Origin: Mobula hypostoma
Lineage: Eukaryota
Assembly (NCBI RefSeq): GCF_963921235.1
Contig: NC_086097.1
Span: 39,868,001-39,932,000 of the forward strand
Direction: 5' to 3'
Length of the DNA: 64,000 bases
This document shows positions 5,027 to 60,700 of the stretch, one piece after another. Within the stretch, counting starts at the first letter, position 1; every line of letters begins with the position of its first letter. The position numbers were made by a program, and so were the translations under genes. Below the pieces are notes generated by a model that had not been told where the DNA came from, made no database searches, and saw only the letters and a list, made by a program, of their open reading frames with translations.

Positions 5027-6212
5027 TCAAGATGGCGCCTGCCAACAATGCTTATTCGGTCGACAGTTTCTGGATACTTCATGAAACATATTTGACTTCT
5101 TTTATGTCTTTTACATTTGTTTTTCATCTTGAATGTAATTCTGGAACTGCTGAAGTCTGTGATTTATTGTTTGGTGATTATTTGGGTGTTCCAGCACTCT
5201 GCAGTCTCCAAGAGGATTCTGGGAGGAGAGGCAGCTTGCATGACCCTTGTTGTGAGAAGGCTGCGGGATGGGGCACGAGCTGATGTTCAACTCCATTTTG
5301 CTGATTAAACCTTCCATTGTTCGCCAATTAATGTGACGAGCGAGATTGAAACATCGAGGCAAATGCAGAAGATGAGCACTGGCTGCCTGCCTTTTGATTG
5401 CTGGTGGGATCACTCTGCTACCAGAGAGGGGAGACTTCCTTTTGATCGTCGGTGGGATCACTCTGCTACCAGAGAGGGGAGACTTCCTTTTGATTGCTGG
5501 TGGGATCACTCTGCTACCAGAGAGGGGAGACTTCCTTTTGGCTACCAGAGAGGGGAGACTTCCTTTTGATCACCGGTGGGATCACTCTGCTACCAGAGAG
5601 GGGAGACTTCCTTTTGATTGCTGGTGGGATCACTCTGCTACCGGAGAGGGGAGACTGCCTTTTGATCTCCAGTGGGATCAGTCTGCTACCAGAGAGGGGA
5701 GACTGCCTTTTGATCTCCAGTGGGATCACTCTGCTACCAGAGAGGGGAGACTTCCTTTTGATCGCTGATGGGATCTCTCTGCTACCGGAGAGGGGAGACT
5801 TCCTTTTGATCGCTGATGGGATCTCTCTGCTACCGGAGAGGGAAGACTGCCTTTTGATCACCGGTGGGATTGCTCTGCTACTGGAGAGGGGAGAGCCTGC
5901 CACTGTGCCTGGAGGATGTTACCCAGGTTTTATTTTGCATTTTGGATATGGGCTTGGACGCTAGACTTTTCTCAGTCTTATAGTTTTTTGTATTCTGTGC
6001 TTTCTGCCTGGTCTTTCTCTTTTTGTGTTCGGGGGAGGGAGACTTGGAGATAGCTGTGCTTGTTCTGTTTTTGTTCATTTCTTGTGTGGGGAGGAGGGGT
6101 TTGGGGATTGATAATCATGCTGCCTTTATTGTCTTTCTTGGTTTCATGGCTATCTGGAGAAGAATTTCAGAGTTGTATACTTTGATAATAAATGAACCTT
6201 TGAGCCTTTGAA
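5027..6212 (+). mobile_element. Non-autonomous retroposon-like element carrying a 48-bp minisatellite
   Basis: Begins with CAAGATGGCG (YY1-type motif). Ends with TATACTTTGATAATAAATGAACCTTTGA, a tail also seen at about 4540-4575, 7550-7600 (minus), 19295-19330 and 57500-57535. Confidence 0.55.
5387..5894. repeat. 48-bp tandem minisatellite, 10 full units plus one 28-bp partial unit
   Basis: Unit CTTCCTTTTGATTGCTGGTGGGATCACTCTGCTACCAGAGAGGGGAGA. Starts at 5387, 5435, 5483, 5531 (partial), 5559, 5607, 5655, 5703, 5751, 5799, 5847. No spacers. Confidence 0.95.
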
Positions 6213-9104: not shown

Positions 9105-10912
9105 CATAGTCATAGTCATAGTCATAGTCATACTTTATTGATCCCGGGGGAAATTGGTTTTCATTACAGTTGCACCATAAATAATAAATAGTAATAAAAC
9201 TATAAATAGTTAAATAGTAATATGTAAATTATGCCAGTAAATTATGAAATAAGTCCAGGACCAGCCTATTGGCTCAGGGTGTCTGACCCTCCAAGGGAGG
9301 AGTTGTAAAGTTTGATGGCTACAGGCAGGAATGACTTCCTATGACGCTCAGTGTTGCATCTCGGTGGAATGAGTCTCTGGCTAAATGTACTCCTGTGCCC
9401 ACCCAGTACATTATATAGTGGATGGGAGACATTGTCCAAGATGGCATGCAACTTTGACAGCATCTTCTTTCCAGACACCACCGTGAGAGAGTCCAGTTCC
9501 ATCCCCACACCATCACTGGCCTTACGAATGAGTTTGTTGACTCTGCAGGTGTCTGCTACCCTCAGCCTGCTTCCCCAGCACACAACAGCAAACATGATAG
9601 CACTGGGCACCACAAACTCATAGAACATCCTCAGCATCGTCCGGCAGATGTTAAAGGACTTCAGTCTCCTCAGGAAATAGAGATGGCTCTGACCCTTCTT
9701 GTAGACAGCCTCAGTGTTCTTTGACCAGTCCAGTTTATTGTCAATTCGCATCCCCAGGTATTTGTAATCCTCCACCATGTCCACACTGACCCCCTGGATG
9801 GAAACAGGGGTCACCGGTACCTTAGCTCTCCTCAGGTCTACCACCAGCTCCTTAGTCTTTTTCACATTAAGCTGCAGATAATTCTGCTCACACCAGGTGA
9901 CAAAGTTTCCTACCATAGCCCTGTACTCAGCCTCATCTCCCTTGCTGATGCATCCAACTATGGCAAAGTCATCCGAAAACTTTTGAAGATGACAAGACTC
10001 TGTGCAGTAGTTGAAGTCCGAGGAGTAAATGGGGAAGAGAAAGGGAGACAAGACAGTCCCCTGTCGAGCCCCAGTGCTGCTGATCACTCTGTCGGACACA
10101 CAGTGTTGCAAGCACACGTACTGTGGTCTGCCAGTCAGGTAATCAAGAATCCATGACACCAGGGGAGCATCCACCTGCATCGCTGTCAGCTTCTCCCCCA
10201 GCAGAGCAGGGCGGATGGTGATGAACGCACTGGAGAAGTCAAACAACATGACCCTCACAGTGCTCGCTGGCTTGTCCAGGTGGGCGTAGACACGATTCAG
10301 CAGGTAGACGATGGCATCCTCAACTCCTAGTTGGGGCTGGTAGGCGAACTGGAGGGGATCTAAGTGTGGCCTGACCATAGGCTGGAGCAGCTCCAGAACA
10401 AGTCTCTCCAGGGTCTTCATGATGTGGGAGGTCAATGCCACCGGTCTGTAGTCATTGAGGCCGCTGGGGCGTGGTGTCTTCGGCACAAGGACGAGGCAGG
10501 ACGTCTTCCACAGTACAGGAACCCTCCGGAGCCTCAGGCTCAGGTTAAATACATGGCGAAGTACTCCACATAGCTGAGGGGCACAGGCTTTGAGCACCCT
10601 GGTACTGACACCATCTGGTCTTGCAGCCTTGCTTGGGTTGAGATCTTTCAGCTGTCTTCTCACCTGTTCAGCTATGAAGTCCACCGTGGTGGTTTCGTGT
10701 GGGGAAGGGGTATAGTCATGAGAGCAGGGAGGGGGACTGTGAGGAGGGGTAGGAGGGGAGAGTGGAATATGTGTTGGTTGGGGGCCGACAACAGATGGCT
10801 CATGTGGGGGATGGGCAGGGGCCACGATGTCAAATCTGCTAAAGAACAGGTTAAGTTCATTGGCCCTGTCCACACTGCCTTCAGCTCCTCTGTTGCTAGC
10901 TTGCTGGAACCC
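9105..10912 (-). mobile_element. Rex1/Babar-clade LINE, 5'-truncated, young
   Basis: Uninterrupted RT ORF plus a 3' UTR ending in a (TATGAC)n tail (plus strand CATAGT repeats at about 9105-9133). Confidence 0.9.
9266..10873 (-). CDS. Rex1-type reverse transcriptase ORF (535 aa, no endonuclease)
   Basis: NDYRPVALTSHIMKTLERL, DPLQFAYQ, FDFSSAF.TI, QGTVLSPFLF, KFSDD, YKYLG motifs. No internal stops. Confidence 0.85.
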   Translation of the reverse strand: MDRANELNLFFSRFDIVAPAHPPHEPSVVGPQPTHIPLSPPTPPHSPPPCSHDYTPSPHETTTVDFIAEQVRRQLKDLNPSKAARPDGVSTRVLKACAPQLCGVLRHVFNLSLRLRRVPVLWKTSCLVLVPKTPRPSGLNDYRPVALTSHIMKTLERLVLELLQPMVRPHLDPLQFAYQPQLGVEDAIVYLLNRVYAHLDKPASTVRVMLFDFSSAFITIRPALLGEKLTAMQVDAPLVSWILDYLTGRPQYVCLQHCVSDRVISSTGARQGTVLSPFLFPIYSSDFNYCTESCHLQKFSDDFAIVGCISKGDEAEYRAMVGNFVTWCEQNYLQLNVKKTKELVVDLRRAKVPVTPVSIQGVSVDMVEDYKYLGMRIDNKLDWSKNTEAVYKKGQSHLYFLRRLKSFNICRTMLRMFYEFVVPSAIMFAVVCWGSRLRVADTCRVNKLIRKASDGVGMELDSLTVVSGKKMLSKLHAILDNVSHPLYNVLGGHRSTFSQRLIPPRCNTERHRKSFLPVAIKLYNSSLGGSDTLSQ

Positions 10913-11319
10913 TTTGATTGATCTTAATGATGTTTGGCTTTATGTAATAGTATCTAGGTAGTTCCATTATTTGCCATGCAAATACTTTCACATGGCTCCC
11001 TTTGAATGTAACAACTGAATTTGCCTCCTTTACTTGCCCAGCAGACTCTTACTGAGAGGCTAAGAAGAGATTTCCTCATGTGACTTTTGTTTCCTTTTCA
11101 GAATTTCTCTATTTACTCCATAATGGAACAATATATCATAGTTCTTTCCCCCTACATCAGTGGGAACAGTTTCTCAATGTCTTCTCTTTCTGTATGTAAC
11201 ATGATTTTAAATAAGTACCTCCACCTGGTCTACTTACAAACTGTTTGAACCAAGAAGAACGAGTGCAGATTCTCCTGTCTATCCACATTTTTAAGGTCCA
11301 TCTAACTGGGTTTCTTGTC

Positions 11320-12079: not shown

Positions 12080-15000
12080 AGTCCATCCAGAATATGAGCT
12101 TCATCTTCTAATCCTGAAGTCTGTCAGCATCTTCTTCCTTGGTGAAGACTGATGCAAAATACTAATTTAGTACCTTAGCCATCCTCCGTGCCTCTCTGAT
12201 AGTCTCTGATCAGTCTCTTCTCTCCTCTTACAAACTTCTGCACTATTACCGATTCCCTTTTATGTCTAAAGCTTCTTTTCTCACCCTTATTTGGTATCTT
12301 TGATTTTTTTTTTCCACTTCCCTTCAGAGCTTATTGAAATCAGCTTGGCCCTCATTTGTATTAACAACCCAGCACCTCTCATATGCTATTTTTCTACTCT
12401 GCTTTACTCTCTATCTTTTCAGTCATCCCTTGGAGATCTGGTTTAATTCCCTAAACCTTTTCCTTAATAAAACTGGACCTAGATTGTAGCTGAAACATCT
12501 CCACTTCAATTACAGCCTTGTTTCCAGTTTACCGAGACCAGATCCACTTTCATCCCATTGAAACTGGTCCTTGTCCAGTTGACAATTTTTATCTTGGAGT
12601 AGCTAATGTCCTTTTCCATAGTTACTTTAAACCTTTTGACATGATTACTGCTCCTTGGCTATTTACCCACTAATACTTGCTGAAAACAGCCTGGTTCACA
12701 TCTCAGAATCAAATTTAGCAATGCAAAGTTGGGCCAGGAATATTTTGATCAATGAAGTCCTTGTGAACATTTCGGAAACTTCAGAGAGTCAAAGGCTCAA
12801 ATTTCACTATTCTATGTTTTGTTTTCAAATCTGCACACTCTCCCTGAAAAGTTGCTCCTCTGTATCAGGATCCTTGACTTGACTTTTTACCTGTTTCTTT
12901 TTTCACTGATGTTGCCTGAGTATTTCATAGAACATAGAATAGTACAGCACAGTACAGGCCCTTCGGCCCACAATATTGTTCCAACCCTTAAACCCTGCTT
13001 CCCATATAACTCCCCACATTAAATTCCTCCATATACTTGTCTAGTAGTCTCTTAAACTTCACTAGTGTATCTGCCTCCACCACTGACTCAGGCAGTGCAT
13101 TCCATGCACCAACCACTCTCTGAGTAAAAATCCTTCCTCTAATATCCCCCTTGAACTGTCCACCCCTTACCTTAAAGCCATGTCCTCTTGTATTGAGCAG
13201 TGGTGCCCTGGGGAAGAGGCGCTGGCTGTCCACTCTATCTATTCCTCTTAATATCTTGTATACCTCTATCATGTCTCCTCTCATCCCACTTCTCTCCAAA
13301 GAGTAAAGCCCTAGCTTCCTTAATCTCTGATCACAATGCATACTCTCTAAACCAGGCAGCATCCTGGTAAATCTCCTCTGTACCCTTTCCAATGCTTCCA
13401 CATCCTTCCTATTGTGAGGCGACTAGAACTGGACACAGTACACCAAGTGTGGCCTAACCAGAGTTTTATAGAGCTGCCTCATTACCTCGCGACTCTTAAG
13501 CTCTATCCCTTGACTTATGAAAGCTAACACCCCATTAGCTTTCTTAACTACCCTATCTACCTGTGAGGCAAGTTTCAGGGATCTGTGGACATGTACCCCC
13601 AAATCCCTCTGCTCCTCCACAGTTCCAAGTATCCTGCCATTTACTTTGTACTCTGCCTTGGAGTTTGTCCTTCCAAAGTGTACCACCTCACACTTCTCTG
13701 GGTTGAACTCCCATCTGCCACTTCTCAGCCCACTTCTGCAACCTAACAATGTCTCTCTGCAATCTTCGACAATCCTCTACACTATCTACAACACCACCAA
13801 CCTTTGTGTCGTCTGCAAACTTGCCAACCCACCCTTCTACCCCCACATCCAAGTCGTTAATAAAAATCACGAAAAGTAGAGGTCCCTGAACCAATCCCTG
13901 TGGGACACCACTAGTGACAACCCTCCAATCCGAATGTACTTCCTCCACCAAAACCCTCTGCTTTCTGCAGGCAAGCCAATTCTGAATCCACCTGGCCAAA
14001 CTTCCCTGGATCCCATGCCTTCTGACTTTCTGAATAAGCCTACCGTGTGGAACCTTGTTAAGTGCCTTACTAAAATCCATGTAGATCACATCCACTGCAC
14101 TACCCTCATCTATATGCCTGGTCACCTCCTCAAAGAACTCTATCAGGATTGTTAGACACGATCTGCCCTTCACAAAGCCATGCTGACTGTCCCTGATCAG
14201 ACCATGATTCTCTAAATGCCCATAGATTCTATCTCTAAGAATCTTTTCCAACAGCTTTCCCACCACAGATGTAAGGTTCACTGGTCTATAATTACCTGGA
14301 CGATCCCTACTACCTTTTTTGAACAAGGGGACAACATTCGCCTCCCTCCAGTCCTCCGGTACCATTCCTGTGGACAACGAGGACATAAAGATGCTAGCCA
14401 GAGACTCAGCAATCTCTTCCCTCACCTCGTGGAGCAGCCTGGGGAATATTCCATCAGGTCCCGGGGACTTATCCATCCTAGTGTATTTCAACAACTCCAG
14501 CACCTTCTCTCCCTTAATATCAACATGCTCCAGAACATCAGCCTCACTCATATTGTCCTCACCATCATCAAGTTCTCTCTCATTGGTGAACACCGAAGAG
14601 AAGTATTCATTGAAGACCTCGCTCACTTCCACAGCCTCCAGGCACATCTTCCCACCTTTATCTCTAATCAGTCCTACCTTCACTCCTGTCATCCTTTTGT
14701 TCTTCACATAACTGAGGAATGCCTTGGGGTTTTCCTTTACCCTATTTGCCAAGGCCTTCTCATGCCCCTTTCTTGCACTCCTCAGCCCCTTCTTAAGCTC
14801 CTTTCTTGCTTCCCTATATTCCTCAATAGACCCATCTGATCCTTGCTTCCTAAACCTCATGTATGCTGCCTTCTTCCACCTGACTAGATTTTCTACCTCA
14901 CTTGTCACCTGCACTCTTATTTCAGATTTCCTGCGGCTGTGGTGTTTTTTAAATTTCATCTTGTTATTCTCATGACTAGTTATCCTAAATAATAGTCCCC

Positions 15001-15680
15001 AAAGTGTAATCACACCAATGTTGTTTCTCAGATTAAAGCAGATAGGATCTGCTCTCGAACATTACAAGGCTTCTCTCTCTAACAATGTCCTCTTTAATCC
15101 AAATCACATTCCTCCCTCCTTCATTTCTTCACCTTCCTTAACATCATGTCATCAGGGATATTTAGAATCAATTTCTGCCCTTTTGTTTGGCCAGTTATCT
15201 ACCAGAATGTGAATTCTTCCTGCAGTTCAACAACCTTCTTTAATAAACTTCTAGTATTTACAACTATTTTAAATCTATTTGTACAGTCATGTTGTTGGGT
15301 CCGCTATAAAAACTTGATATTACTTTTTCTGGTGCTATTTATCTCTTCCAATCCATTTTTGCACCTTTTTTTCTCTTTTTCAGTAAAACTTCCTGAGAGC
15401 ATTCCCTATCAAACACCCTGCACAGTACTGGTGAGCCTTCTTGCATGACATTGCTCAGTTGGGGAACATTCATCCAGATAGTATAGTTACCACCTTCCCC
15501 AGAACTGGTTGCAATGTCTCAGGAAGCTAAAGGCTTTCTTTCTGCACCATCTCTCCAGTTGCACATTTATCTGTGCTAGTCTCTATTTCTATTCTCGCTG
15601 GAGTGTAACACAGGAAGTTATCCAAAAATTGCTTTCTTTTGGGTCCTTCTTCTTAGTTAACACTTTGGTATATTGTAAGG
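12080..15680 (-). mobile_element. Old, heavily decayed CR1, split by a younger CR1
   Basis: Degenerate CR1 EN-to-RT linker at 12080-12900. EN N-terminal and ORF1-like sequence at 14930-15680. Confidence 0.5.
12926..14907 (-). mobile_element. Young CR1 LINE, 5'-truncated (RT plus 3' UTR)
   Basis: ORF 13688..15013 has KSPGPDGI, NYRPV.LTS, QHGF.KGRSCL, YMDFSKA, SGVPQG, KFADD. One frameshift near 13712 and one stop near 13423. 3' tail reads CATAGAACATAGAA on the plus strand. Confidence 0.92.
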
Positions 15681-19574: not shown

Positions 19575-22120
19575 AAATCCATGCAAGGGCATTGCTTCAT
19601 GATCAATTCCTCATGGTGTACAAACATAGTGGTGCTTTCCCACTCCTGTTCACCAGACTTTGAATACCTTGCATTTAAATGCTGTTCATCTTACCTGCCG
19701 TGGGAGATTTCAGTGATCATTTTGGTAGCAGTGCACAATCCACCTCAGGCCAATGTCAAACAGGTTCTAGAAGAACTGAGCAATGTAATCAATAGGCATG
19801 AAACTGCACATCCTGGTGCCTTCCCCATCAGTTTGGAGCTTTTTATCGGGTCATCGTGAAAAGGTCACTATGTAATCATGATCAATAAATCACCAGTGGT
19901 AAGAAAAATACTGGGCCACTGTTCCACCACCATCAAGAGTGCTTACCGTGCTATCCCACACCCACACTTTGGGAAGTCTGATCATCTGGTGTACTTCTGA
20001 TCCCTGAGTATAGGTAAGGACTGAAGACTGCAGCACCAGCAGTGAGGACCAAGAAGATATAGACAAGGGAAACACAAGAGTGCTTACAGGACTTGATTGA
20101 ATTGGTGAACTGGACAGTATTCAGCGATTCATTTTCTAATCTGGATGAGTATGCTGCAGTTGTCACTGACTTCATTAAAACCTGTGTAGAGGTTATGCCT
20201 ACAACAACATACTGTACATATCCAAATCAAAAGTTGTGGATGAACCAGGAGGTCCGTAGTCTGCTGAGGGCTGGATCTGTGGCATTTAAGTCTGGTGACC
20301 CGGGTCTGTATAAGAAAACCAGGTATGATTGCAGAGGGCTATTTCAAGCGCAAAGAAACAATTCTGAGTGAGGTTGGAGGCGACATTGGGTGCACGTCAA
20401 CTCTGACAGAGTTTGTAAGCTATTACTTTCTACAAAGCAAAATCCAACATCATGAATGCCAGATGAGCTCAACACCTCCTATGCCCGCTTTGAAAGGTAG
20501 GGTAAAATTAGAGCCATGAGGATCCCTGTGTCACCCAGTGACCCTGTGATATCTGTCTTGGAGGCCGATGTCAGGCTGTCTTTCAAAAGGGTGAACCCTT
20601 GCAAGGAGGCAGGCCCCGATGGAGTACCTGGTAAGGCTCTGAAAACTTGTACCAACCAGCTGGCGGATGTATTCAAAGAAATTTTCAAACTCTCATTGCT
20701 ACTGTCGGAAGTTTCACCTGCTTCAAAAGGGCAACAATTACACCAGTGCCCAAGAAGAGTAGTGTGAGCGGCCTCAATGGCTATCGCCCTGTAGCACTCA
20801 CATCTATGGTGATGAAGTGCTTTGAGAGGTTGGTCATGGCCAGAGTCAACTCCTGTCTCAGGAACGACCTGGGCCCACTGCAATTTGCCTATCAGCACAA
20901 TTGGTCTATGGCAGATGTGATATCAGTGGGTCTCCATGTGGCCTTGCCTCACCTGGACAATACAAATATCCTTATTGATTATAGCTCAGCATTTAACACC
21001 GTCAATGCTGATTGAAAAGCTACAGAACCTGGGCCTCTGTACCTTCCTCTGCAACTGGATCCTCGACTTCCTAACCAGAAGACCACAATCTGTGTGGATT
21101 GGAAATAACATCTCCACCTCACTGACAATCCACACTGGCGCACCTCAAGGATGTGTGCTTGGCTCACTGCTTTACTCTCTCTACATCCATGGCTGTGTGG
21201 CTCGGTATAGCTCAAATGTCAACTATAAATTTGCTGATGATACAACCATTGTTGGTAGAATCACCTATGGTGACGAGAGGGCGCCCAGGAGTGAGATATA
21301 CCAGCTGATTGAGAGGTATCGTAGCAAAAACCTTGCACTCAACATCAGTAAGACCAAAGAGCTGATTGTGGACTCCAGAAAGGGGAAGACAACGGAACAC
21401 AAACCAATCCTCAAAGAAGGAGCAGAAGTAGAGAGAGTGAGCATTTTCAAGTTTCTGGTTATCAATATCTCTGAGGACTTAACCTGGTTGCGACATATTG
21501 ATGCAGCTATAAAGAAGGCAAGACAGTTGCTATGTTTCATTAAGAGTTTAAGGAGATTTGGTTTGTCACTTAAAACACTTGAAAACTTCTGCAGAAGAAC
21601 TGTGGAGAGCATTCTGACGGGCTGCATCACTGTCTGGTATGGAGGGGGGAGCTACTGCACAAGATCGAAGTATGTTGCAGAAAGTTTTCAATTTAGTCGG
21701 CTCCATCATGTGTACTAGCCTCCATAGTATTCAGGACATCTTCAAGGAGTAGTGCCATAGGAAGGCAGCTTCCATCATTATGGATGCCCAGCATTCAGGA
21801 CATGCCCTCTTCTCACTGTTACCATCAGCAAGGAGGTACAGAGGCCTGAAGGCCCACACTCAAGTGATTCAGGAACAGCTTCTTCCCCGCTGCTACCTGA
21901 ATCCTAAATGGACTTTGAGCCCGTCAACTCTACCTCACTACATTTTTAAAATTTCTGTTTTGGCACTACTTGTTTTAACTTAACTATTTAATATACATAT
22001 ATGCTGACTGTAATTCAGTTTTTTTGACAATTATCATGTACTGCATTGTCTGCTGTGGCAAAGTTAACAAATTTCACGGTGCATGCGGAAGATATTAAAC
22101 CTGATCCTGATTCCAATTCT
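19575..22120 (+). mobile_element. Rex1/Babar-clade LINE, near full ORF (EN plus RT), decayed
   Basis: ORFs 19551..19859 (EN), 20093..20371, 20516..20767, 20647..21015 (YRPVALTS.VMKCFERL) and 20936..21718 ([13 protein letters not shown]). Multiple frameshifts. 3' tail AAACCTGATCCTGATTC. Confidence 0.88.
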
Positions 22121-24684: not shown

Positions 24685-25580
24685 TATATATTAATATCTT
24701 TCCTGAGTTCTACATGTTAAAATTGCAAGTGATGTGAATCAAAGGAAAGGGAAGTATGGTTGACAAGCAGAGTATGGGACTTCCAGCAGCACACACAAAA
24801 TGCTGGAGGAACTCGACAAGTCAGGCAGCATCTATGGAGAGGAATAAACAGTCGATGTTTTGGGGGTCTTTTCACAGCCCATAACTCAGCGTCTGGACAG
24901 CTGCTGACTGAAGGACATATACCCTCTTAGGCATAGAAATATAATAGAACTTACACAATTTGTCTTACTATTGACGGTAATTGTGCATTTTTAAAACAAT
25001 TCTATTATACAGGCCCTACCCAATTGGAGCAGAATGCATGTAACCTTTTAAAGAAATGCACAAGACAAGGGTGAGGAAAACAAGTAACAGACTTACATTA
25101 CCAAATCTTCAATGTTGACCAAAACAATCTAATTTTTTAAATCAAGTAATCATAAATAATTTACAAACTAAAGAATCCAGTTTGAAGAATCTACATCTAC
25201 ATTCTATATAAAGCATGATTAAACTTTGACAGTATCCTAATTTGCTCACTGTGCCAGACACACAATATGACCTTCTCATACAATAAAATTACTCCCTGAT
25301 TATAATGAAATTATGAGCATTACCTGTCATCAAGAATTGCTTGCTTTAGGAAACCATTTTTGTTCACTTAGGAGTTCTCTGATCATCTACTTATTTTGAA
25401 GTGCATACATCCAGTACTCCAGGGAATATGACAGCCAGTTTAAGCATCAGAACGTCCCACAAACAGCAATGCCATGACAGTAAAATAATCTGTCTCGGTA
25501 ATGATGGGCTGGTTATATCTTAGTATCTTTGCAAATATTGGAAAAATAACCAAACTACAATTCAGCTATTAAACTGGTGC

Positions 25581-25804
25581 TGTACCGTATAGCCTACATT
25601 ATAATAAGGGACTACTTTATGTTGTAGTAACACATCTTTCAATGCGCTATTAGGTGCATATTGAGCATGCGCTATTAGACGCATATTGATCTGTACATGT
25701 GTGTTCAGTTCAATTTTGGTCAGTAAAGAACCCTGCTAACTTAGCTCTCATCTCCAGCGTTTTAATTTATAGCTTTGTTGTGTAACCCGGCCACATACAC
25801 AACA
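25581..25804 (+). repeat. 5' LTR
   Basis: TGTACCGTATAGCC...TACACAACA. Ungapped match to 30486-30709 with about 28 mismatches in 224 by hand count, many at CpG. Confidence 0.95.
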
Positions 25805-25807
25805 AAT

Positions 25808-25817
25808 TGGCGATGAG
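25808..25817 (+). promoter_or_regulatory. Primer-binding site, tRNA-Ser(GCU)-like
   Basis: TGGCGATGAG lies 3 nt after the 5' LTR. It is one change from TGGCGACGAG, the complement of the tRNA-Ser(GCU) 3' end CUCGUCGCCA. Confidence 0.8.
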
Positions 25818-26166
25818 ATTAATGAACCTACATTGTATCGGAACGCCGTGTTTTAATTGATAACGACACTCGGAAGAAGAGCGCAACGTACGAGCCAAGG
25901 CAGAGTGAGGCCGCGAGTCTGAAAGGAAACGGAAGCACAGCTGCAAGTCTGGAACGTCGGGAGACCAGGAGACACAGTCGGAGCCACAGCATGTCCAGCC
26001 GAGACCACAGCCGGCGCTGACCCCCAGGGGCTGAGGGTCTGCCTGCCTCAGAAGGGAAATAAAAAGGAGCAACACACACACATCCAGACAGAATGCGCTC
26101 GTGGCACTAGCAAAAAGGTCACATGAGTAAAAAAAGGGAGAACGGGACTAAATTAACATAACAAAG

Positions 26167-27135
26167 ATGGCAATGATTGGAACCATTACAGCGTATGATA
26201 GTAGCATTGAAGACTGGGCAACTTACATTGAAAGAGTGGAGTTATATTGTGATGCTAACGATGTTAATGATGGAAAGAAAGTCAGTATCTTACTTAGTAT
26301 TATGGGAGCAAAAACATACAGCCTGCCACGGGGCTTGTTAACACCTGAAAAGCCAGCTGACAAAACTTTCAAGCAAATAGTAGACACTCTGCAACAGCAT
26401 TTAAACCCCAAACCGCTGGGCATTGCTGAAAGATTTAAATTTCACAATTCGAATCAGAGCAAAAATGAAAGCATTTCTGAATATTGTGCTGAATTGCACA
26501 AATTATCAGAACATTGTCAATTTGGAGCTGGTCCATTGGACGCATTGAGGGACAGGTTAGTGTGTGGCATGTACTGTGAAACTACACAGAAGAAGCTCCT
26601 GGGTGAAAAAGGCCTTACATTTGAGAGAGCACTAAACATCTCAATATCATTAGAAATAGCTGCACGAGGTGCTTCAGAGATACAACAAAAATCTCTGGAA
26701 TATGCAACGAATAAAATGACACTGTACAGAAATGAAGGAAAGAAATGTTACCTTTGTGGGAACAGGTCACATGATCCTGATGGTTGCTGGTTTAAAGACA
26801 AAGAATGCAGAAACTGTGGCAAACAGGGCCACATTGGCAGAGTATGCAAAGCTAGTAAACCGCAGAGAAAGGTCAAATTACAGAGAAACAAGAAACCCCA
26901 GAAAGGAAAACACAACAAGGTACACAAAATTAAAGAAGACAGTTCTGATGAAAACAAATCTGATGAAAGTGAACTGTCTTATCTGCAACTTCACAGTGTG
27001 GAAGAGACAGATGATCGAAGAGTAATAGAGATCACTCCACAAGTGGCAGGCGTAAGACTGAAAATGGAGTTGGATACAGGCTCAGCTTTAACAGTGATCT
27101 CTGTTACAAACGACTGTTTTCACACATACTTCTGA
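26167..27135 (+). CDS. gag: Gypsy Gag plus protease N-terminus (322-aa ORF, ends after a frameshift)
   Basis: EDWATYIERV..Y..AN, PKPL.IAERFKFH..NQ...ESISEY..EL..L...C.FG, ALRDRLVCG. Two knuckles (CYLCGNRSHDPDGC, CRNCGKQGHIGRVC). Aspartyl protease motif ELDTGS. Confidence 0.9.
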   Translation: MAMIGTITAYDSSIEDWATYIERVELYCDANDVNDGKKVSILLSIMGAKTYSLPRGLLTPEKPADKTFKQIVDTLQQHLNPKPLGIAERFKFHNSNQSKNESISEYCAELHKLSEHCQFGAGPLDALRDRLVCGMYCETTQKKLLGEKGLTFERALNISISLEIAARGASEIQQKSLEYATNKMTLYRNEGKKCYLCGNRSHDPDGCWFKDKECRNCGKQGHIGRVCKASKPQRKVKLQRNKKPQKGKHNKVHKIKEDSSDENKSDESELSYLQLHSVEETDDRRVIEITPQVAGVRLKMELDTGSALTVISVTNDCFHTYF

Positions 27136-27345
27136 AACGAACAAAACTTCCACTGCTAAAGACTTACACAGGATAGAAAGTGCGTCCCGAAGGCAAAATT
27201 AAAGTGACAGTGACCCACAGAGGTAAAATACAGCAACTGAACCTCTATGTACTGAAAAATGGAGGACCACCTTTGCTGGGATGTGAATGGCTCAGGAAAA
27301 TCCAGTGGATTGACACACCATCAAGGCACTAGATGTGTCAACAAA
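27040..27345 (+). pseudogene. Gypsy aspartyl protease and linker, disrupted
   Basis: After a frameshift near 27106 it reads YKRLFSHILLKRTKLPLLKTYTG*KVRPEG...LYVLKNGGPPLLGCEWLRKIQ. After a 1-nt deletion it continues [10 protein letters not shown]. Confidence 0.85.
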
Positions 27346-27367
27346 GGAGGGCAGCTCGGCGGGGAAG

Positions 27368-28030
27368 ATGTCCGCAGCTCTCCTCTCACCCATTGTCCAC
27401 TATTCCAATGACGAGGAGGAGCTAGGCAGCGTCAACGATGGGGGCGAACGTAGTATCCGTGGCCGCGACTCGGATGAAGATACAGAGGATGCAAGGGAGA
27501 CCGATATTGCCAATAAGCAGGATGATGAAGACTACCTGGAAGTAAAAGAGCAGATGTACCAGGAGAAATTGTCCTAAAAGACAGCTACAGCAATTACAGG
27601 AAGGCACTTTGCAGGAGTATTAGAAAAGGATGAAGAAACTAGATCAACAATTCAAGGAAAGAATACAAAATGCAGAGCTTTTTCTGCAACTGGAGACAGA
27701 ACAAGTGGAAAGGAATTATATTAAAGAGAAGAAAGCAGCAGTGAAGGAATTTGAAGATAAAAAGATTGAGTTAGAAGAAAAGAAAAAGATGATTGAGAAT
27801 GAGAGGCTAACAATGGAACTCACAGGAGATTCTATGGAGGTAAAGCCAATAAGGACTAGGAAACTAAGGAGGAGACCTAATTGCCCTATTCCAATTACAG
27901 ACAAAAGACAAAAACCTGCACCTGCGCAGTTAACTTACTTGTTAACAGATGAACATATAATGGAAGATCTGCAAACTCTCAATAAGCTTAAATCTCCGAA
28001 AAGACCAGCATCTCCGTCTTCTCCTGAACA
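27368..28030 (+). pseudogene. SUDS3: Processed (intronless) SUDS3 fragment inside the LTR element
   Basis: MSAALL...[15 protein letters not shown]...[14 protein letters not shown], then [62 protein letters not shown]...[18 protein letters not shown]...[36 protein letters not shown]. This closely matches vertebrate SDS3 from the start to about residue 240. It has a frameshift near 27572, a stop near 27621, loss of about 8 codons (KENLIAEL in human) and a 3' truncation. Confidence 0.95.
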
Positions 28031-28384
28031 ATTTCCTTGGGAAAGATCCATGCAAATTGATTATCCCTTAAAAGCTCTTGGACAAAATCAATTCCATTCA
28101 AACAGAACAGCTTTCGCACAAGGTAAATCTTTAATTGATCATTTCCTCCATTGAGAATCATACACTTAATCCTTTGCAGGGAAGCTTCTTTTGCACGTAC
28201 GTATTTTGAATCCTCAGCAATGTGTCTTGTTTTGCACAAAGACATTGGGAAACAGCATCAAAACAGAGGCGAATTCTGGCAACAAACTGTAAGGTTTCTA
28301 TTGTTGTATTTTCACACTTGCACAAAATAAACAACACATGAGCTTGGGCACAAGCCAAAAATCAGCCACATCAGGAAGATTCAA
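28018..28384 (-). pseudogene. RNF213: RNF213 cDNA fragment, downstream part (antisense to the LTR element)
   Basis: TTIETLQFVARIRLCFD and [40 protein letters not shown] align with human RNF213 SVEYLQEVARIRLCLD and NDWHRVYLVRKLSSQRGMEFVQGL...WVFPKDVVK (from memory). One frameshift between the blocks. Confidence 0.85.
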
Positions 28385-29825
28385 GCGCTAGTGAATAGAG
28401 GTAAGTTTTGAGCCTGGACTTAAAAGATCAATGGGGGGGGGGCAGATCTGATAGGGAGGGGAATGTTGTTCCACAGTCTAGGGACTACAACAGCACAAGG
28501 CACAGTCACCCCTGAACTTAAATTTAGATCGCGGGGCAGCCAGGAGCCCCAAGTCAGCCGACCTGAGGGAACTGGAAGTAGAATAAGGAGTTAGAAGGTC
28601 TGCGATATAGGAGGGGGCCAGCCCATTTAGGGGTTTATAAACAAACAGGAGAACCTTGAAATCAATTCTAAACCATACTGGTAACCACTGTAGAAAGGCC
28701 AGGATAGAAGTAATATGGTCCCTCTTCCGGGCACCTGTCAGGAGCCTGGCTGTGGTGTTCTGGACCAGTTGCAGGCAGGACAAGGACGACTGACTAATCC
28801 CAGTATACAGGGAGTTGGAGTAGTCCAAGCGGGCAGATATAAGGGTGTGGATGACTTTCTTGAGATCTTTGAAAGAGAGAAACGTCTTGATTTTGGCAAT
28901 AGTACGAAGCTGGAAAAAATTGGCTTTTACTACCACATTAACTTGCTGGTCAAACTTAAAGGCGGAATCAAATATTACACCAAGGTTTTTGACATGGTGT
29001 TTGACAAGGGTAGACAGGTTACCAAGACTGTTGGTAATCACTTTGATGGAGTCAGTGGGGCTAAATAGGACAACTTCAGACTTGCCTTCATTCAACTGTC
29101 GGAAGTTTTGTGCCATCCAACACTTTATGTCCTCAAGGCAGTTCATGAGACTGACTAGATTTGATTGGTCGTTTGGTTTCAAGGGGAGATAAAGCTGTGT
29201 GTTGTCAGCATAACAATGGAAGGAAATTACATGTTTTTGAATGATTTGGCCAAGGGGAAGCATGTATATAGAGAAAAGAATAGGACCTAGGATGGAACCT
29301 TATGGGACCCTGCAAGAGAGACTAACTAGAGAAGAGGAAAATTTGCCTATGCTGGCGGCGCAGCTTCTATTTTTGACATAGGATATGAACCACTTCAAGG
29401 CAGTGCCATCAACACCAACCCCGTAATGGAGACGGTCTATTAAAATGGCATGATCCATAGTATTGAATGCGCTGAGGTCAAGAAGAATTAGGATGGCAGA
29501 GTCACCTGAGTCGGTAGAGAGGAGGAGATCATTGTACACTTTCAGCAGGGCAGACTTTGTGCTATGATAACCTTAAAACCTGACTGAAATCTTTCCTAGA
29601 TGTTGTTTTGGTGTAGGTAGGGCAGCAATTGACTAAGAATAACCTTTTCGATAACCTTTGACAGGAATGGAAGTTTAGAAATAGGTCTGTAGTTACTAGG
29701 TAAGGTAGGGTCTAAATTGTTTTTTTTTCAGGAGGGGCTTGACCGTAGCACGCTTGAAGCAGGTTGGAATGGTACCAGTGGCCAGGGAGCTGTTGATTAT
29801 AGAGAGGATGCTGGGACTGGCTATG
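28385..29825 (-). mobile_element. L2-clade LINE RT fragment inserted in the RNF213 segment
   Basis: ORFs 29696..29881 (IINSSLATG.IP..FK.A.V.PLLKK), 29300..29539 (LILLDLSAF.T.DH.IL) and 28478..29263 (HCYADNTQLY, SARLDYSNSL, RDHITSILA.LQWLP). Confidence 0.9.
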
Positions 29826-29829
29826 TCAA

Positions 29830-30290
29830 TCTTTTCTTGCACTGTGCACAATTGGGATTTTTCATACATTGAATCCTCCAAACAATTCAGAAACAGTGCA
29901 TAGAGTTCAGTCTCATTTTCTCGACTAAGATTTGTTTTTTTTTTAACTTCAGACAGATAGCACTGCAGGTACTCCTTAATATCAGCAAAACTGTACTTTA
30001 GCAGCAGCTTAAGAACAATGGAATGAACAGCAGGATTTCGATCAACTGCTTCTTCAAACTGTGAAAGATTACTGGTAAAGTAGTGATCTTTCTGTGAGAC
30101 ATTGGATTGCCCCGACTTTTGAATAACTAGCCAAGACAGAAGATCACCAACTACTTCTTTTGGAAACCAAAGCTACAAAAAATGCATCACACCTCTTGCA
30201 AAATATGACTAATTTTGCTACAGCTTCAGTTATTTCTTCTGTTACCGCTGGTACATAATCATCAACTAGAGAAGTACAGCACAGTGGGCA
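29830..30290 (-). pseudogene. RNF213: RNF213 cDNA fragment, upstream part (end of RING into E3 module)
   Basis: Minus strand reads CPLCCTSLVDDYVPAVTEEITEAVAK...CKRCDAF, KEVVGDLLSWLVIQK, SQFEEAVDRNPAVHSIVLKLLLKYSFADIKEYLQCYL and ETELYALFLNCLEDSMYEK. The human counterparts (from memory) are CPYCLTALPDEFSPAVS, KEVIESLLSLLFVQK, SPFNDVVDKTPVIRSVILKLLLKYSFHDVKDYIQEYL and KTELYMLFINCLEDSILEK. Confidence 0.88.
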
Positions 30291-30467
30291 GAGTCCCCCC
30301 CAGAGACTTGAGTTATAAATGGGTCTTAGACCAAAAGTTAAAAAAAAGGCTTGTTATAATTTGATATTATTAAGTTACTAAGTAAACAAATGGTAGGCGT
30401 TTTATCTTAGGGGTAAACATATTTGTTTAGCATAGTGCCCCAGTAAAAAAAAAGTTGATACACTATT

Positions 30468-30485
30468 AAAATAAAAGGGGTGGAG
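30468..30485 (+). promoter_or_regulatory. Polypurine tract
   Basis: AAAATAAAAGGGGTGGAG immediately before the 3' LTR. Confidence 0.85.
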
Positions 30486-30709
30486 TGTATCGTATAGCCT
30501 ACATTATAATAAGGGAGTACATTATGTTGTAGTAACACGTCGTTGAATGTGCTATTAGGCACGTATTGAGCATGTGCTATTAGGCGCGTATTGATCAGTA
30601 CGTGTGTGTTCAGTTCAGCTTCAGTCAGTAAAGAATCTTGCTAATTTAGCTCCCGTCTCCAGTGTTCTTATTTATAGCTTTGTTGTGTAACCCGCCCACA
30701 TACACAACA
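30486..30709 (+). repeat. 3' LTR
   Basis: TGTATCGTATAGCC...TACACAACA, followed by TSD GGTAC. Confidence 0.95.
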
Positions 30710-31033
30710 GGTACTTGTCGCAACACCACTTGAAATATGTGTAAAGTACAGATAAATAAAGTTTGGAGACACTTTCAGATATCATGAAACTAACATAACA
30801 AAGAATGTGAAAAAATATTTATTAATTATTTAATTAAAACTATACTCTTGTTCAGATTATGTTTTCACAGCTGCACTCTTCGGTGCTTGCAGAAATGCAA
30901 CATCGAAGAGGCTCCTAATATATTGGTGCCAACTCTTTGGAGAGCTCTTCTAATAGCCCTGGAGCCATATTGCTGTTTCCCCAGAAACTTAAACATTTTC
31001 CTCAATTTCATTATTGTTTTCTTTCTGATATCA

Positions 31034-41524: not shown

Positions 41525-42049
41525 ATTTTGACTCATCAGTCGAGATCACTTGTTGCCATTGTTCAGCTCCCCAGTCCTTGTACCTTTGTGCGAGGGTGAT
41601 TCTCTTAGCTTTATTTCTACTTTAGAGGAATGGCCTTTTGACGGCAATTCTTCTGTGAAGACCACTTCTGACAAGAGTTCTCTGGATTGTAGAGGGGTGT
41701 CCTTGTGTTCTAGTGGTTTCTGTGAGTTCAGAGCAGTACTGGACTTCTGATTTACAAGAGACATCAATTTGATGTACCTCTTGCCTGCTGCACTCAGTTT
41801 TCGTGTCTGAACATTGGATTTCTGGTCCCCAGCCTTTCCGTTTCTTTGTACTTCTTCAGAAGAGCTTGCACAGCACATCTGGAAACTCTCATCTGCTGCC
41901 AACTTTCTGCTTTGGAGAGACCTTGCTGATGTGGGATGACCACCTTGTGTCTTGTTGCCATGCTTGCTCTTGCCATGGTGTACGAATTGATGATTTAAAG
42001 GATAAACTGTCACATTTGCCATGCCCCCACTTTTAGTTTGGTTGTCCTT
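41525..42049 (-). mobile_element. Tc1-like transposase 5' fragment; upstream region probably continues at about 44727-44860
   Basis: ATRHKVVI.HQQGLS.A....Q..VSRCAVQALLKKYKET, then RKLSAA..RYIKL.SL.NQK.S. This is the Tc1 paired-type HTH region, frameshifted. Confidence 0.75.
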
Positions 42050-44520
42050 GTTCTTCTTTTGTGCTAATGGTGGGTCACACCTATCAGGAAGGCCACCTAC
42101 TGTAATGGAGTATGACAGAAGTCATAATGGGGATCAATCCTGCCTCCCAAACCCGCCTTAATTAAAAATTTACCAGGGCCCTACATGACTTAATCATTCT
42201 TGCTTCAGCTCACAGAATATCCTGCAACCTAGGCACCCAGATCTACACATTAATGGCCTAAACAGCTTCCTATGTTCTGATGAGAATCTGTGGCACACCA
42301 TGATCACATGTTCCAGTGTTTCTAGTACCTTACCTAACGCACACCACCTATTTCCATGTTTACCAACAAGTGCCAAAATGGAGTGCAAACCCATACTGTC
42401 TGTCCAAACCTCAGTCTTGCCAACCACACATCTTCCCTCCTGTTCCTTCAGAAAAGGTGCCTCCCCCGAAATGATGGAAACAAATTGTGATACCACCTCC
42501 CTGCACCACTCCTATCCCATACATTCTGTCATGTTCTAATCCCAGCCAACCTAATACAAGATTTGGCTTCATACTCTCCTACGTATATTGACTGTAATAT
42601 CTGCCTCTGACTTAGTAAGTGCCTGTTTTGTTGTAACATTTGCCCTTTCATCACCCGATACACCCAGATGTGTAGGTACCCAACAAGACTGTACTACTCT
42701 TCCTGCACTCTCCAGAACATATAAATTGTAATACACTTCCGTCAACGGATCAGGTCTCCTTGAACACTTTGATCCAAACTCTGTAGTACTGAGGCAGAAT
42801 CTGAGCAGACCACGACTCTACCTGGCTTAGCTTGTTCAACCCATTGTAAACTAATGATAACAGCCATAAATTCTGTCAGCCTTTTCCCCGCCTCAGCATT
42901 AAACCAGGGGATAAATATCCCTGAGCTCACCTGGTTACCAACTGGGTCTTCAGCGCACTTTGTAAAGGTAGGATAAAAGGAAAAATACTGCTGTTTTAAG
43001 TTACCAGACACCCTCTCACCACCCACAAGACCCTGTCCATCCCCCAGTAATGACAAATTTATTCCCACATCTGGAAATTTCCAAAGTGGAACTCCTGGCC
43101 AGGTCACTGTTGGGCTAATCCACAAATCCCCAAGACCATCTCACACATATTCCCTAATTATCCACCCAAAACATTTACCACCTTGCTGGTATATTCCCAA
43201 CAATCTATTAAAACTGAATATGTGAAATGGGACGTCCTCTACCCTACTATGGAAATCCAGCACGCAAGGGTCAATTTTCTTCTCCGCAGGTCAAGAGGCA
43301 TCTTGCCTAGTTCAACCACCAATGCATCTCAATGTTGGTTCGGAATGCTCCACTACAGATTCTAGGTGCACTGGCCTGTAGGACATCCAACCTATATAAA
43401 ACTGAACAGGCTGCCTCCTCATAATTCATACAACCATAGTCCAGCAAGAGCTCATTAAAGAATGATAATTTGTCAGTAGCACACCCCTAGAAGCTCCCCA
43501 GTAATACACAGTCATACACTGCAAAAAGTTAATGACCTGCTTATCTTTATCCTCCAAAAACTTTATATGTATTCTCTAAGTCAATCTGGCATCTAACCAT
43601 AACCCCAAGTTTTCAACACGGAACACCCATACAGAGTAAAGTGAGTATTGTCTAACCCATGTTTCTGAGTAAGAAACACATATTTTGACTCAGAAACAGA
43701 AAATTTTAAACCCCAGTCTGAAGACCATTCTCTCATTGCTGATAACGCTGTTTACACAGATCTTACCACAGAGGCAGTATTACAGCTCCTTACTGATTCT
43801 TTTACTATAAAAGCTTTCCAAATATAATTTCCCTGTAGTGCAAGTGCATCATATATAGATCTCCCTTTATGTAAACCACATTGGTAGTGACTTAAGGCTG
43901 ATTTATACTTTTGCGTCAAATCGACACCGTAACCTACGCAAGTGGCCTACGCGCGTTGTGACCATTTATACTTGTGCGTTGGTGTGTCTGCATCGCTCTG
44001 CAATTTGCGCAAGGCTACATGGTCATGATAGTCTTTCTCAGGGTAAACAAGTTTAAAGCGAGCGTCTTTTTTCGTGAAAGCGAAATGTGTCCTCCATAAT
44101 TTCGGAGGTCTGTAAAGCTTTATGGAAAGCATTGCAGCCAGAGTTCCTTCCCTGTCCTTCAGTTGCCCGATGGGAAGCTATGACAGCGTAGGAAGAAATG
44201 CGATGCTGCCAAGCGGACCAATCACAGCTGTTGCGGTCTGTGTTGCCGTGACGTGTAGTTACATTTTGGGAGAGGAGTGCATCAGGCTACGGCGTAGGGA
44301 TCCACGTAGGCACTGCGTATGGTTTGCAGCTACGCCATACCAACGGCGTCAATTTGACACAGAAGTATAAATCAGCCTTAAGTAATTCTCTCTTCTGTAA
44401 AACCAATATCAGTCTCATTGCTGTAGTTTTCTCCATTATTTTGCAAAGTGAAGAGGTGAGAACAAAAGCCTGTAGCTACTTGGCAGCATCAGATCCTTCC
44501 CAGGTTAACAATAGGCAACA
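42050..44520 (-). mobile_element. Nimb/I-clade LINE with RNase H, decayed
   Basis: EFMAVIISLQWVEQ..P.RVVVCSDSASVLQSL (RNase H), C..GKVLET.EHVI..C knuckle, 3' end CAGTAGGTGGC...AAGAAGAA. Possible TSD TTGGTTRTCCTT near 42038 and 44527. Confidence 0.75.
43895..44378. mobile_element. PIF/Harbinger-type MITE
   Basis: Imperfect ~35-bp TIR AGGCTGATTTATACTTTTGCGTCAAATCGAC / GTCAATTTGACACAGAAGTATAAATCAGCCT, flanked by TTA and TAA. Removing the element plus 3 bp restores the host LINE frame (RELLSHYQCG). Confidence 0.8.
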
Positions 44521-59209: not shown

Positions 59210-60700
59210 TCATTTTTAAAATATTTTTATTGATACATAATCTTCTACAGCTATAAAATGATACAAGACTTCAACAAGTTGATATATATACAGTTAATAA
59301 AGCTGAAGAAAATATTTATCAAATAAGAATAATATATGATAATGAAAAAAATTATTTTTTATAAAGAAAAGAAGGAAAAAAAGAGAACTCCAACTAACTA
59401 AAAGAAAAAAACCCACTAACTACAAAAGAAAGAAAAAGAAAAAAAAAGAAAAAAGAAAAAAGAAAAAAAAATCCATTAGGAACCAGCTCCTGGAAAAATA
59501 TGTCTTACGATCATCTGTATATATAAAGAAGAAAAATCATCATCCGCCAACTCACATTTATATAAAATAAGATTGGAAGGAAACCATATAAATTAATTCA
59601 AATTAAATGATAATATTTGGCAAAAGAGCCCCATCTTCTCTCAAAATCGAATCGAGGATCAAAAGTCCTACTTCTAATTTTTTTCCGAAATAAGACATAA
59701 CATTACTTGGGAAAACCATTGAATTAATGTAGGGACAGAGGTACCTTTCCATTTCAATAAAATAGCCCTTCTTGCCAACAATGTATCAAATGCAATTACA
59801 TGTTGGTCTGAAGATGAAACACCCTGAATATGATGTGGAACTATTCCAAATAGAACAGTCAGTATATAAGGTTGTAAATTAATTTTCAGAGCTTTAGAAA
59901 TTGTAAAAAATAAAGAGTTCCAAAAAGATTTTAATGAAGAACATGACCAGAACATATGTGACAAAGTGGCTACTTCAGTTTTACACCTATCACAATAGTT
60001 GTCTATGTTAGGAAATATTTTGGATAGTCTCTCCTTTGTTAAATAATAACGGTGAACAATTTTAAATTGAATTAAACAGTGATTGCCACATACCGAAGAA
60101 GAATTGACCATTTTCAGAACTTGCAACCAATCTTCATTAACAAAGGTCATATTAAGTTCTCCCTCCCAATCTTGTTTAATCTTTAGTGAGAGGTTAACTT
60201 TTTGTAGTAAAAATAAATTATAAATTCTACCAATGGAACCTCTCACTAAAGGATTCATATTCAAAATAGTATCCAACAAATCAGATACTTGCATATATGG
60301 AAACTTAGATAAGTATTTTTGTAAAAAATGTCCAACCTGTAGATATTGCAGGAAGTGTGTATGAGAGAGGGAATATTTACTAATTAACTCTTCAAAAGTC
60401 ATCAATCGACCATCACAAAATAAATCTGCAAAAAAACAGATCCTTGAAGGCTTAAATAGAAAATTTCAATATAAACAGCTATACAATTTAAATTGTTTAA
60501 AATTAAAAGAGTTGCGAAACTGAAACCAAATCCATAAGGACTGTTTAATAACTGGGTAGAGATTTAAATTTGGAATTTTAGCAAGTTGTAAAGGTAATGG
60601 AGCTCCTAATAATGAGGTTAAATAAAGTTGTTTGATAGCTTTTCATTCCAAATCGATCCAAGCTGGTTTTTGGCTCTTGTCGAGCCAATATAGTCAAAAA
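59210..60700 (-). mobile_element. L1-clade LINE 3' fragment
   Basis: ORF 59674..60405 has FLQYLQV.HFL, LIQFKIVHR.Y.T..RL.KI.P, knuckle CDRC....ATLSHMFWSC and ARRAILLKWK. T-rich 3' UTR ending in AATAAA. Confidence 0.9.

Follow-up and report, generated by a model that had tools for sequence, protein, structure and literature searches.

How did a coding sequence for SDS3, a subunit of the SIN3/HDAC1-2 corepressor, come to lie within a retrotransposon of the ray Mobula hypostoma, and was it once read as part of that element's polyprotein? The locus lies in a window of 64,000 nucleotides (the whole stretch of DNA that was analyzed), in which an initial annotation had placed SUDS3 in frame with the pol linker. 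SUDS3 was found to be enclosed by an LTR element of 5129 bp (25581-30709), the features of which are given below in order.

25576..25580, no strand: left target-site duplication, matching the right one (30710-30714) at 4/5 letters
25581..25804, plus strand: 5' LTR of 224 bp, TG...CA, with 28 differences from the 3' LTR (K2P 0.14)
25808..25817, plus strand: primer-binding-site-like sequence, read directly, its role suggested by position
25818..26166, plus strand: GC-rich leader, with a match at 25948-25998 to the N-terminus of P0122, a RefSeq model
26167..27111, plus strand: Gag with capsid and zinc knuckle, then the start of the protease, which carries the DTG motif
27105..27305, plus strand: remaining protease, frameshifted and interrupted by a stop at 27174
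27305..27313, plus strand: copy-specific frameshift and stop at the protease end, the frameshift being absent from other contigs
27314..27355, plus strand: the element's protease-RT linker, 14 codons in the SUDS3 frame, delimited by relatives and by contig divergence
27356..27367, plus strand: ~12 nt of presumed SUDS3 5' UTR, where autonomous contigs diverge
27368..28027, plus strand: intronless SUDS3 CDS, parent residues 1 to ~228, with a frameshift at 27571-27575, a stop at 27621 and a 24-nt gap at 27766
28020..28320, plus strand: post-deletion sequence, probably SUDS3 3' UTR, overlapping the coding part by 8 nt and common to a subfamily
28321..30080 (end approximate), minus strand: later LINE insertion with decayed RT frames
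30290..30318, plus strand: final pol codons and stop, PQRLEL*, resembling by eye the ends of relatives
30468..30485, plus strand: polypurine tract
30486..30709, plus strand: 3' LTR

Gag and the early protease (26167..27111) are 63-64% identical to P0001, the closest intact relative, and are of the K02A2.6-like Ty3/Gypsy type, a clade label drawn from protein matches without an RT tree, RT being absent from the element. Pfam matches to Gag and the zinc knuckle in this stretch were below the Pfam cut-offs, and Pfam gave no match for the two SUDS3 pieces alone or for the two short protease pieces (four of five proteins blank). The top protein matches to the Gag-protease are single-ORF polyproteins of ~1310 aa, 55-63% identical over Gag, which carry Gag, protease, RT, RNase H and integrase Pfam domains on one ORF. 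A protein search of 50% representatives returned no Gag above 63% identity; one protein from that search, P0509, has a long non-pol tail. Besides the final pol codons, tblastn detected no remnant of RT, RNase H or integrase within the element, and no env was found between the LTRs. An L1-type processed pseudogene inside the element was rejected as an origin of the SUDS3 sequence, pol being replaced rather than interrupted.

The LINE at 28321..30080 is presumably of the L2/CR1 type, judging by its motifs, and two contigs of run X1 jump from 28320 to sequence like that from 30081 onward (24/30 letters, compared by hand). The window is otherwise repeat-rich, with decayed LINE RT frames at 9266-10939, 13688-15061, 20479-21718 and 59674-60465 that we take, by their motifs, to represent several LINE families. 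A tandem repeat at 5111-5964 yields long open frames on both strands. The minus strand of 41546-42121 holds a 191-codon stop-free frame that is Ser/Lys-rich and without obvious repeat motifs, and which may be a host exon.

The frame of the junction was examined against relatives and against contigs of four runs (X1, X6, X15 and X16, of which X1 and X6 are DNA) aligned on 25560-28400. According to the initial annotation, the post-protease frame runs into the SUDS3 ATG at 27368, and this was borne out: 27314-27370 is a single stop-free frame running into that ATG, 33 nt past 27335, and relatives carry HTIKAL at the linker position (HTIKALNV in P0001). By tblastn, residues 391 onward of P0001 align on 27314 in the SUDS3 frame. 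The end-of-protease motif occurs in 105 of the 120 relatives examined, and xx[IL]K comes next in 80 of these 105. Six X1 contigs (one DNA run) depart from the window after 27355, with an agreement of 0.98, and beyond 27355 a manual translation of their loose end, with the codon phase retained, gave a sequence similar to that with which pol continues in P0001 and P0009. Since the autonomous contigs diverge after 27355, only ~12 nt of host 5' UTR would stand before the ATG. Of the remaining frames, read from 27356, one closes after 18 codons and one after 23. Judged from sequence, the linker frame is the true pol frame and the same as that of the SUDS3 ATG; comparison with the autonomous element could have separated the two frames, and it left the proposed fusion standing. 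The likening of the locus to a gag-onc fusion, with SUDS3 in the place of RT, is supported as geometry, as pol ends at 27355 and SUDS3 follows in frame.

In this copy, the protease frame just upstream (27054-27305) differs from the linker frame, which implies a frameshift at 27305-27310, and the frame match might be regarded as an artefact of that break. We consider this scarcely credible. The linker residues match those of relatives in the SUDS3 frame, the autonomous contigs carry on as pol in the same frame, and P0122, another copy, carries the linker and SUDS3 in one frame. The artefact was rejected on the relatives' linker alignment and the autonomous contigs, both of which put pol in the SUDS3 frame. 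The in-frame join is a single capture event with a prior of ~1 in 3, and the caution in the initial annotation that such a frame arises one time in three holds: the frame alone is not above chance.

Contigs spanning the junction were recovered from three organisms: A (X1, 27246-27480, with one single-letter gap), C (X6, 27152-27514) and B (X16, 27306-27501). One of them (X16 record 22) lies in a run guessed to be RNA, a kind of run in which contigs of the family type are also met. A fusion protein was not found among 268 Gag and 257 SDS3 matches (525), gene models seldom covering repeats.

From the Gag ATG to the SUDS3 end, this copy carries three frameshifts (~27105-27111, 27305-27310 and 27571-27575) and three stops (27174, 27311 and 27621). 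The initial annotation had listed one frameshift, one stop and a deletion; the breaks are present and more numerous, and the deletion is not damage of this copy, the 24-nt gap at 27766 being family-wide in Mobula and Hypanus SDS3-like models. Contigs of X1, X6, X15 and X16, some possibly from autonomous relatives, differ from the window at 27105 (1, 3, 0 and 0), at 27305 (8, 22, 2 and 3), at 27571-27575 (up to 5, 15, 2 and 1) and at 27621 (34, 48, 1 and 1). Sharing was judged from 40 of 638 rows, with the stops at 27174 and 27311 falling outside those rows. Whether every copy shares the disabling changes had been raised as a point against any protein function, and the inspected ones (27305, 27571-75 and 27621) differ in other contigs. 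As the breaks inspected are absent from other copies, we infer an open founder frame, no single intact copy having been seen. An ancestral Gag-protease-SUDS3 fusion frame is, in our judgment, very likely.

The element is one of many copies. Loose ends before the LTR edge were found in 127 contigs of X1 and 96 of X6 (agreement ~0.4), counts that take in 3' LTRs, solo LTRs and autonomous copies and give the order of magnitude only; contig-mapping depths, which are not copy numbers, were left unused as such. The outer edge of the 5' LTR adjoins many distinct flanks in the two DNA runs, and RefSeq SDS3-like models (taken from the best 120 of 813 and the best 120 of 230 matches) are located on separate scaffolds in Mobula birostris, M. 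hypostoma and Hypanus sabinus. The chimera has been retroposed secondarily, the junction and the gap being common to copies on different scaffolds and in different genera. Amplification has brought the family to roughly a hundred sites or more, and it is present in no fewer than two families of rays. A family-specific 28-nt pattern had no match in metagenome or viral contigs, and none of the sequencing runs searched shared half of the words of the stretch; among the runs that do share words with it, none is recorded as RNA.

The in-frame 24-nt (8-residue) gap is present in 10 of 257 SDS3-type proteins, all of them Mobula or Hypanus SDS3-like models, and the full motif without the gap is present in 164 of the 257 and also in the M. 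hypostoma parent. A natural protein of the gap-bearing kind is XP_072094239.1. The gap sits at a 6-nt direct repeat, and a parent-like RNA contig in X16 is without it. A normal splice isoform was rejected as its source, only ray SDS3-like models carrying the gap and the parent-like contig lacking it. Together with P187T (9/9) and S263G (7/7), the gap is fixed across copies. The copies are star-like, with 158 of 200 distinct substitutions being singletons. SUDS3 is intronless, its CDS continuing through residues 38 and 216, where parental isoforms (P0157/P0247 and P0259) change exon, and some RefSeq copies keep intact SUDS3 frames (311 aa).

The absence of the C-terminal Tudor-like domain, as described in the initial annotation, is true of the window and not of the capture. 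A match to the coding sequence extends to 28027, and another sets in at 28020, giving an overlap of 8 nt; the joint is also spanned by X1 record 8 and X6 record 31, X16 contigs have loose ends at 28020 and 28027, and 7-8 contigs per DNA run, the post-deletion subfamily, lie at 28060. All or most of the domain, which matches PDB 7SXI, is kept in seven other copies, and truncation at capture was rejected on this ground. As far as sequence can tell, the Tudor-like domain was captured and then lost in one subfamily, and the founder was not truncated.

Several copies show further peculiarities. In P0122 (XP_062921164.1), from M. hypostoma, leader 25948-25998 is joined straight to the linker (27326 onward) and SUDS3, skipping gag and protease; this model is either a deletion derivative or a spliced subgenomic RNA, and a spliced leader-to-linker RNA was absent among the 15 joints listed out of 191. 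One X16 contig matches leader 25947-26044 and continues into other sequence, at a bin depth of ~850 compared with 40-140 nearby; this leader may be reused in a host transcript. P0241, from M. birostris, carries an FKQNSFR insert in SDS3 that matches window 28090-28115 in another frame and is a further rearranged copy. The 181 bases at 27672-27852 are identical to a gap-bearing X15 contig, though the LTRs differ by 12.5%, through a low mutation rate, gene conversion or constraint.

By the features tested, the SUDS3 element is an LTR-mediated retrocopy, of the kind described for animals as LTR-mediated retrocopies or pseudo-LTR retrotransposons by Tan et al. 2016 (PMC5131818). As described in that paper, spliced host mRNA replaces part of the ORF in sense orientation with discontinuous element sequence on both sides, both LTRs and an outside target-site duplication (4/5 here) are present, and further rounds of retroposition take place (PMC5131818). 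Microsimilarity at the switch points is a further trait of such retrocopies (PMC5131818). Two internal deletions of the SUDS3 cargo sit at 6- and 8-nt overlaps. The SUDS3 element differs in having taken a whole CDS, in frame with gag-protease, and in the extent of its amplification, to the hundred or more sites and the two or more ray families given above. Most older LTR-mediated retrocopies are reported to carry loss-of-function changes (14/21; PMC5131818). Maize Bs1 is likewise an LTR retrotransposon with transduced host gene sequence (PMC7264820, PMC5131818), but its host-derived part comes from several genes, and it is cited as an example of a chimeric gene with a function (PMC7264820), whereas no constraint was shown on the SUDS3 cargo.

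Corepressor-type cargos, such as v-ErbA and v-Ski, are also known from the gag-onc fusions of acutely transforming retroviruses. These share with the SUDS3 element a defective element, host cDNA in frame behind gag and the need for a helper; a host CDS in frame with gag is found in the family and is broken in this copy. The SUDS3 element, in contrast, is a Ty3/Gypsy element without env that is inherited through the germ line, and its cargo was full length at capture, with no selected function shown.

We then asked whether the cargo bears signs of use. Over 531 nt, the window departs from two parent-like X16 contigs at 7 and 9 letters (16 in total; ~97% identity of cargo to parent). With ~13 of the 16 differences changing an amino acid (the split being inferred), the dN/dS comparison with parental SUDS3 proposed in the initial annotation gave a pN/pS of 1.04, or 0.72 and 0.53 if one or two differences are reassigned; an omega of 0.2 was rejected (p 0.004 to 0.05). 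Among 11 copies (10 RefSeq models and the window), 8-13% of residues differ from the parent, with one copy at 2.5%. In these substitution counts, residues 1-7 of P0169, 94-113 of P0271, 1-11 of P0121, from 310 of P0245 and from 184 of P0264 were dropped as frameshift artefacts, and the shared sites 43, 187 and 263 were also left out. The mean BLOSUM score of copy substitutions (-0.21) equals the random single-base expectation (-0.21), compared with +0.66 for orthologues. From residue 60 onward, 126 of 1744 invariant and 32 of 396 variable sites were changed (p=0.59); over the whole protein, including the N-terminal tail, invariant sites were slightly spared (7.7% vs 10.8%, p=0.01).

The copies have decayed neutrally, and a use for the fused protein is not supported; a selected function of the cargo was not found, the pattern being neutral in the copies examined. 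Any retroelement gene should decay neutrally once inserted, whether or not it was of use, and such decay does not show the cargo of the founder to have been useless. In the founder lineage, only the gap, P187T and S263G are fixed at the protein level, too few to test selection.

One region departs from this pattern. Over the 967 residue-sites of the coiled coil, 42 substitutions were counted (4.3%), compared with 8-13% (~10%) elsewhere. The deficit persists under four mutation models, which predict 53-75 substitutions where 40 were observed (p 0.02 to 3e-8). As the initial annotation had stated, the cargo keeps the coiled coil and the Sin3-interaction segment: P0123 matches PDB 4ZQA and 2N2H over these, and the window aligns too. 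The helix through which SDS3 dimerises in the solved structure (4ZQA) contains the position of the 8-residue gap, which in the model lies at the interface edge. With two chains of P0123 residues 62-157, which bear the gap, an antiparallel dimer centred on residue 112 was predicted with a score of 0.57, the best of three controls scoring 0.01; runs agreed on at least 97% of contacts, and pLDDT was at least 83. The mark for a dimer was reached by 21/30 solved pairs and 0/23 single chains (17/29 and 0/30 for eukaryotes). According to this model, the gap-bearing cargo could have stayed foldable.

These results bear on the possibility that frame and cargo type were selected for the life cycle of the element, such that in-frame captures of coiled coils amplify, which we consider quite unlikely. 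A coiled coil behind the protease would replace the dimerising moiety of pol and aid Gag-protease assembly or protease activation, a role that appears doubtful. The predicted dimer and the mutation of the coiled coil at about half the rate of the rest point in this direction, but the dimer pass may stem from the model's memory of solved PDB 4ZQA, and the coiled-coil region of the window has no CpG and a GC of 0.36, so that a low mutation rate may explain the deficit. In addition, selection does not act on dead inserted copies, most of the counted substitutions are private to single copies, and a sub-lineage that had lost a third of the cargo, but not the coiled coil, still spread.

The initial annotation had speculated that a protease-released, truncated SDS3 interfered with SIN3-HDAC silencing. 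The truncated form does not hold, as SDS3 was captured with its C-terminal domain, pN/pS lies at ~1 and the Sin3-interaction segment has substitutions at 9.3%, similar to the linker and the Tudor-like domain. A broader version, in which released SDS3 acts as a decoy or altered SIN3-HDAC subunit and relieves silencing of the element, is to our minds highly improbable. The in-frame join with its retained linker, the intact 311-aa frames, the family-type contigs in the guessed RNA runs and the presence of the dimerisation and Sin3-binding segments are consistent with it, Sds3 being described as supplying dimerisation and binding Sin3 and HDACs (PMC8800102). However, with a founder SDS3 of full length and near-wild-type sequence, support of the complex is a likelier outcome than poisoning, the Sin3-interaction segment is not spared from mutation, and a trans-acting anti-silencer would benefit non-carriers equally. 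Among the papers listed by a search of the open-access literature, none stood out as tying SUDS3 to retroelement silencing.

A benefit could also act at the RNA level, with host-like sequence shielding the element or element-derived piRNAs targeting host SUDS3 mRNA, the frame being incidental. Precedent is found in the TART-nxf2 and piwi/aub captures of Drosophila telomeric elements, in which a transposon carries the sequence of a host repression gene and capture-bearing families are reported to have higher copy number (PMC13534243). The SUDS3 cargo is likewise a chromatin-repression gene, and close to its parent in sequence. The Drosophila elements are non-LTR and their captures are described as short fragments acting via piRNAs (PMC13534243), whereas the SUDS3 element carries a whole CDS in frame. 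The parent protein is, moreover, unchanged between Mobula and Narcine over 216 residues, a comparison at the protein level only and not at synonymous sites. We regard an RNA-level benefit as improbable.

An LTR-borne, in-frame capture of SUDS3 as passenger cargo, followed by neutral decay, is on balance the probable explanation and the best of those considered. A single-ORF Ty3/Gypsy element would have co-packaged spliced SUDS3 mRNA, and RT would have switched templates twice, a mechanism taken from Tan et al. 2016 to account for the observed structure, such that the whole SUDS3 CDS and 3' UTR replaced RT, RNase H and integrase. The 5' switch would have fallen where the junction is seen, 14 codons past the protease and ~12 nt before the ATG, in frame. 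The chimera, keeping LTRs, PBS, PPT, gag and protease, would have been copied in trans by intact relatives. Judging by what the copies share, the founder lost 24 nt of the coiled coil at the 6-nt direct repeat and fixed two substitutions before the spread, the Tudor-like domain being lost afterwards in one sub-lineage. Because of the single-ORF design, young copies probably made a Gag-protease-SDS3 polyprotein of ~710 residues, which could have been cut by the protease in the retained linker. The cargo would have been a passenger, its frame owing to luck or tolerated for the sake of RNA translation and stability, which a long open frame maintains, and all copies seen would then have decayed neutrally. 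Protein-level roles of the fused SDS3, taken together, are unlikely.

No paper on a SUDS3-bearing ray element family was found in the open-access literature. In a preprint, SUDS3 ranks in the top five genes of cartilaginous fishes by retrocopies, and the abundance of retrocopies is linked there both to non-LTR elements and to either germline expression or selective filtering (bioRxiv 10.64898/2026.06.26.734816). Its SUDS3 retrocopies are very probably the same copies as the present family. Here they differ in deriving from one LTR-borne capture amplified as a family, an LTR vehicle being unnamed in the available text of the preprint. The other top retrocopied genes reported there, MIPOL1, SLU7, SDF2L1 and ZNF276 in cartilaginous fishes and PIWIL2 and DND1 in amphibians, may have been multiplied in the same way, as cargo of elements that amplified.

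The locus is one dead copy of a widespread ray retrotransposon family, in which the gag-onc-like geometry is real and the cargo probably passive. One LTR-borne capture amplified as a family explains why SUDS3 ranks so high among the retrocopied genes of cartilaginous fishes, and the 'SDS3-like' RefSeq genes of Mobula and Hypanus should be read with the warning that they are transposon cargo. The junction and frame of a gag-onc-like fusion are hereby pinned down in a vertebrate germ line. More speculatively, and with low probability, ray Gypsy elements may include a natural class of enzyme-less Gag-protease-cargo elements in which in-frame host coiled coils are selected as stand-ins for pol, SUDS3 also delivering a SIN3-HDAC subunit; if true, this would be selection on captured host protein domains that benefit a germ-line transposon in a vertebrate. 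Captures in ray genomes make such a benefit countable, through the in-frame share, the type of cargo and selection on internal branches.
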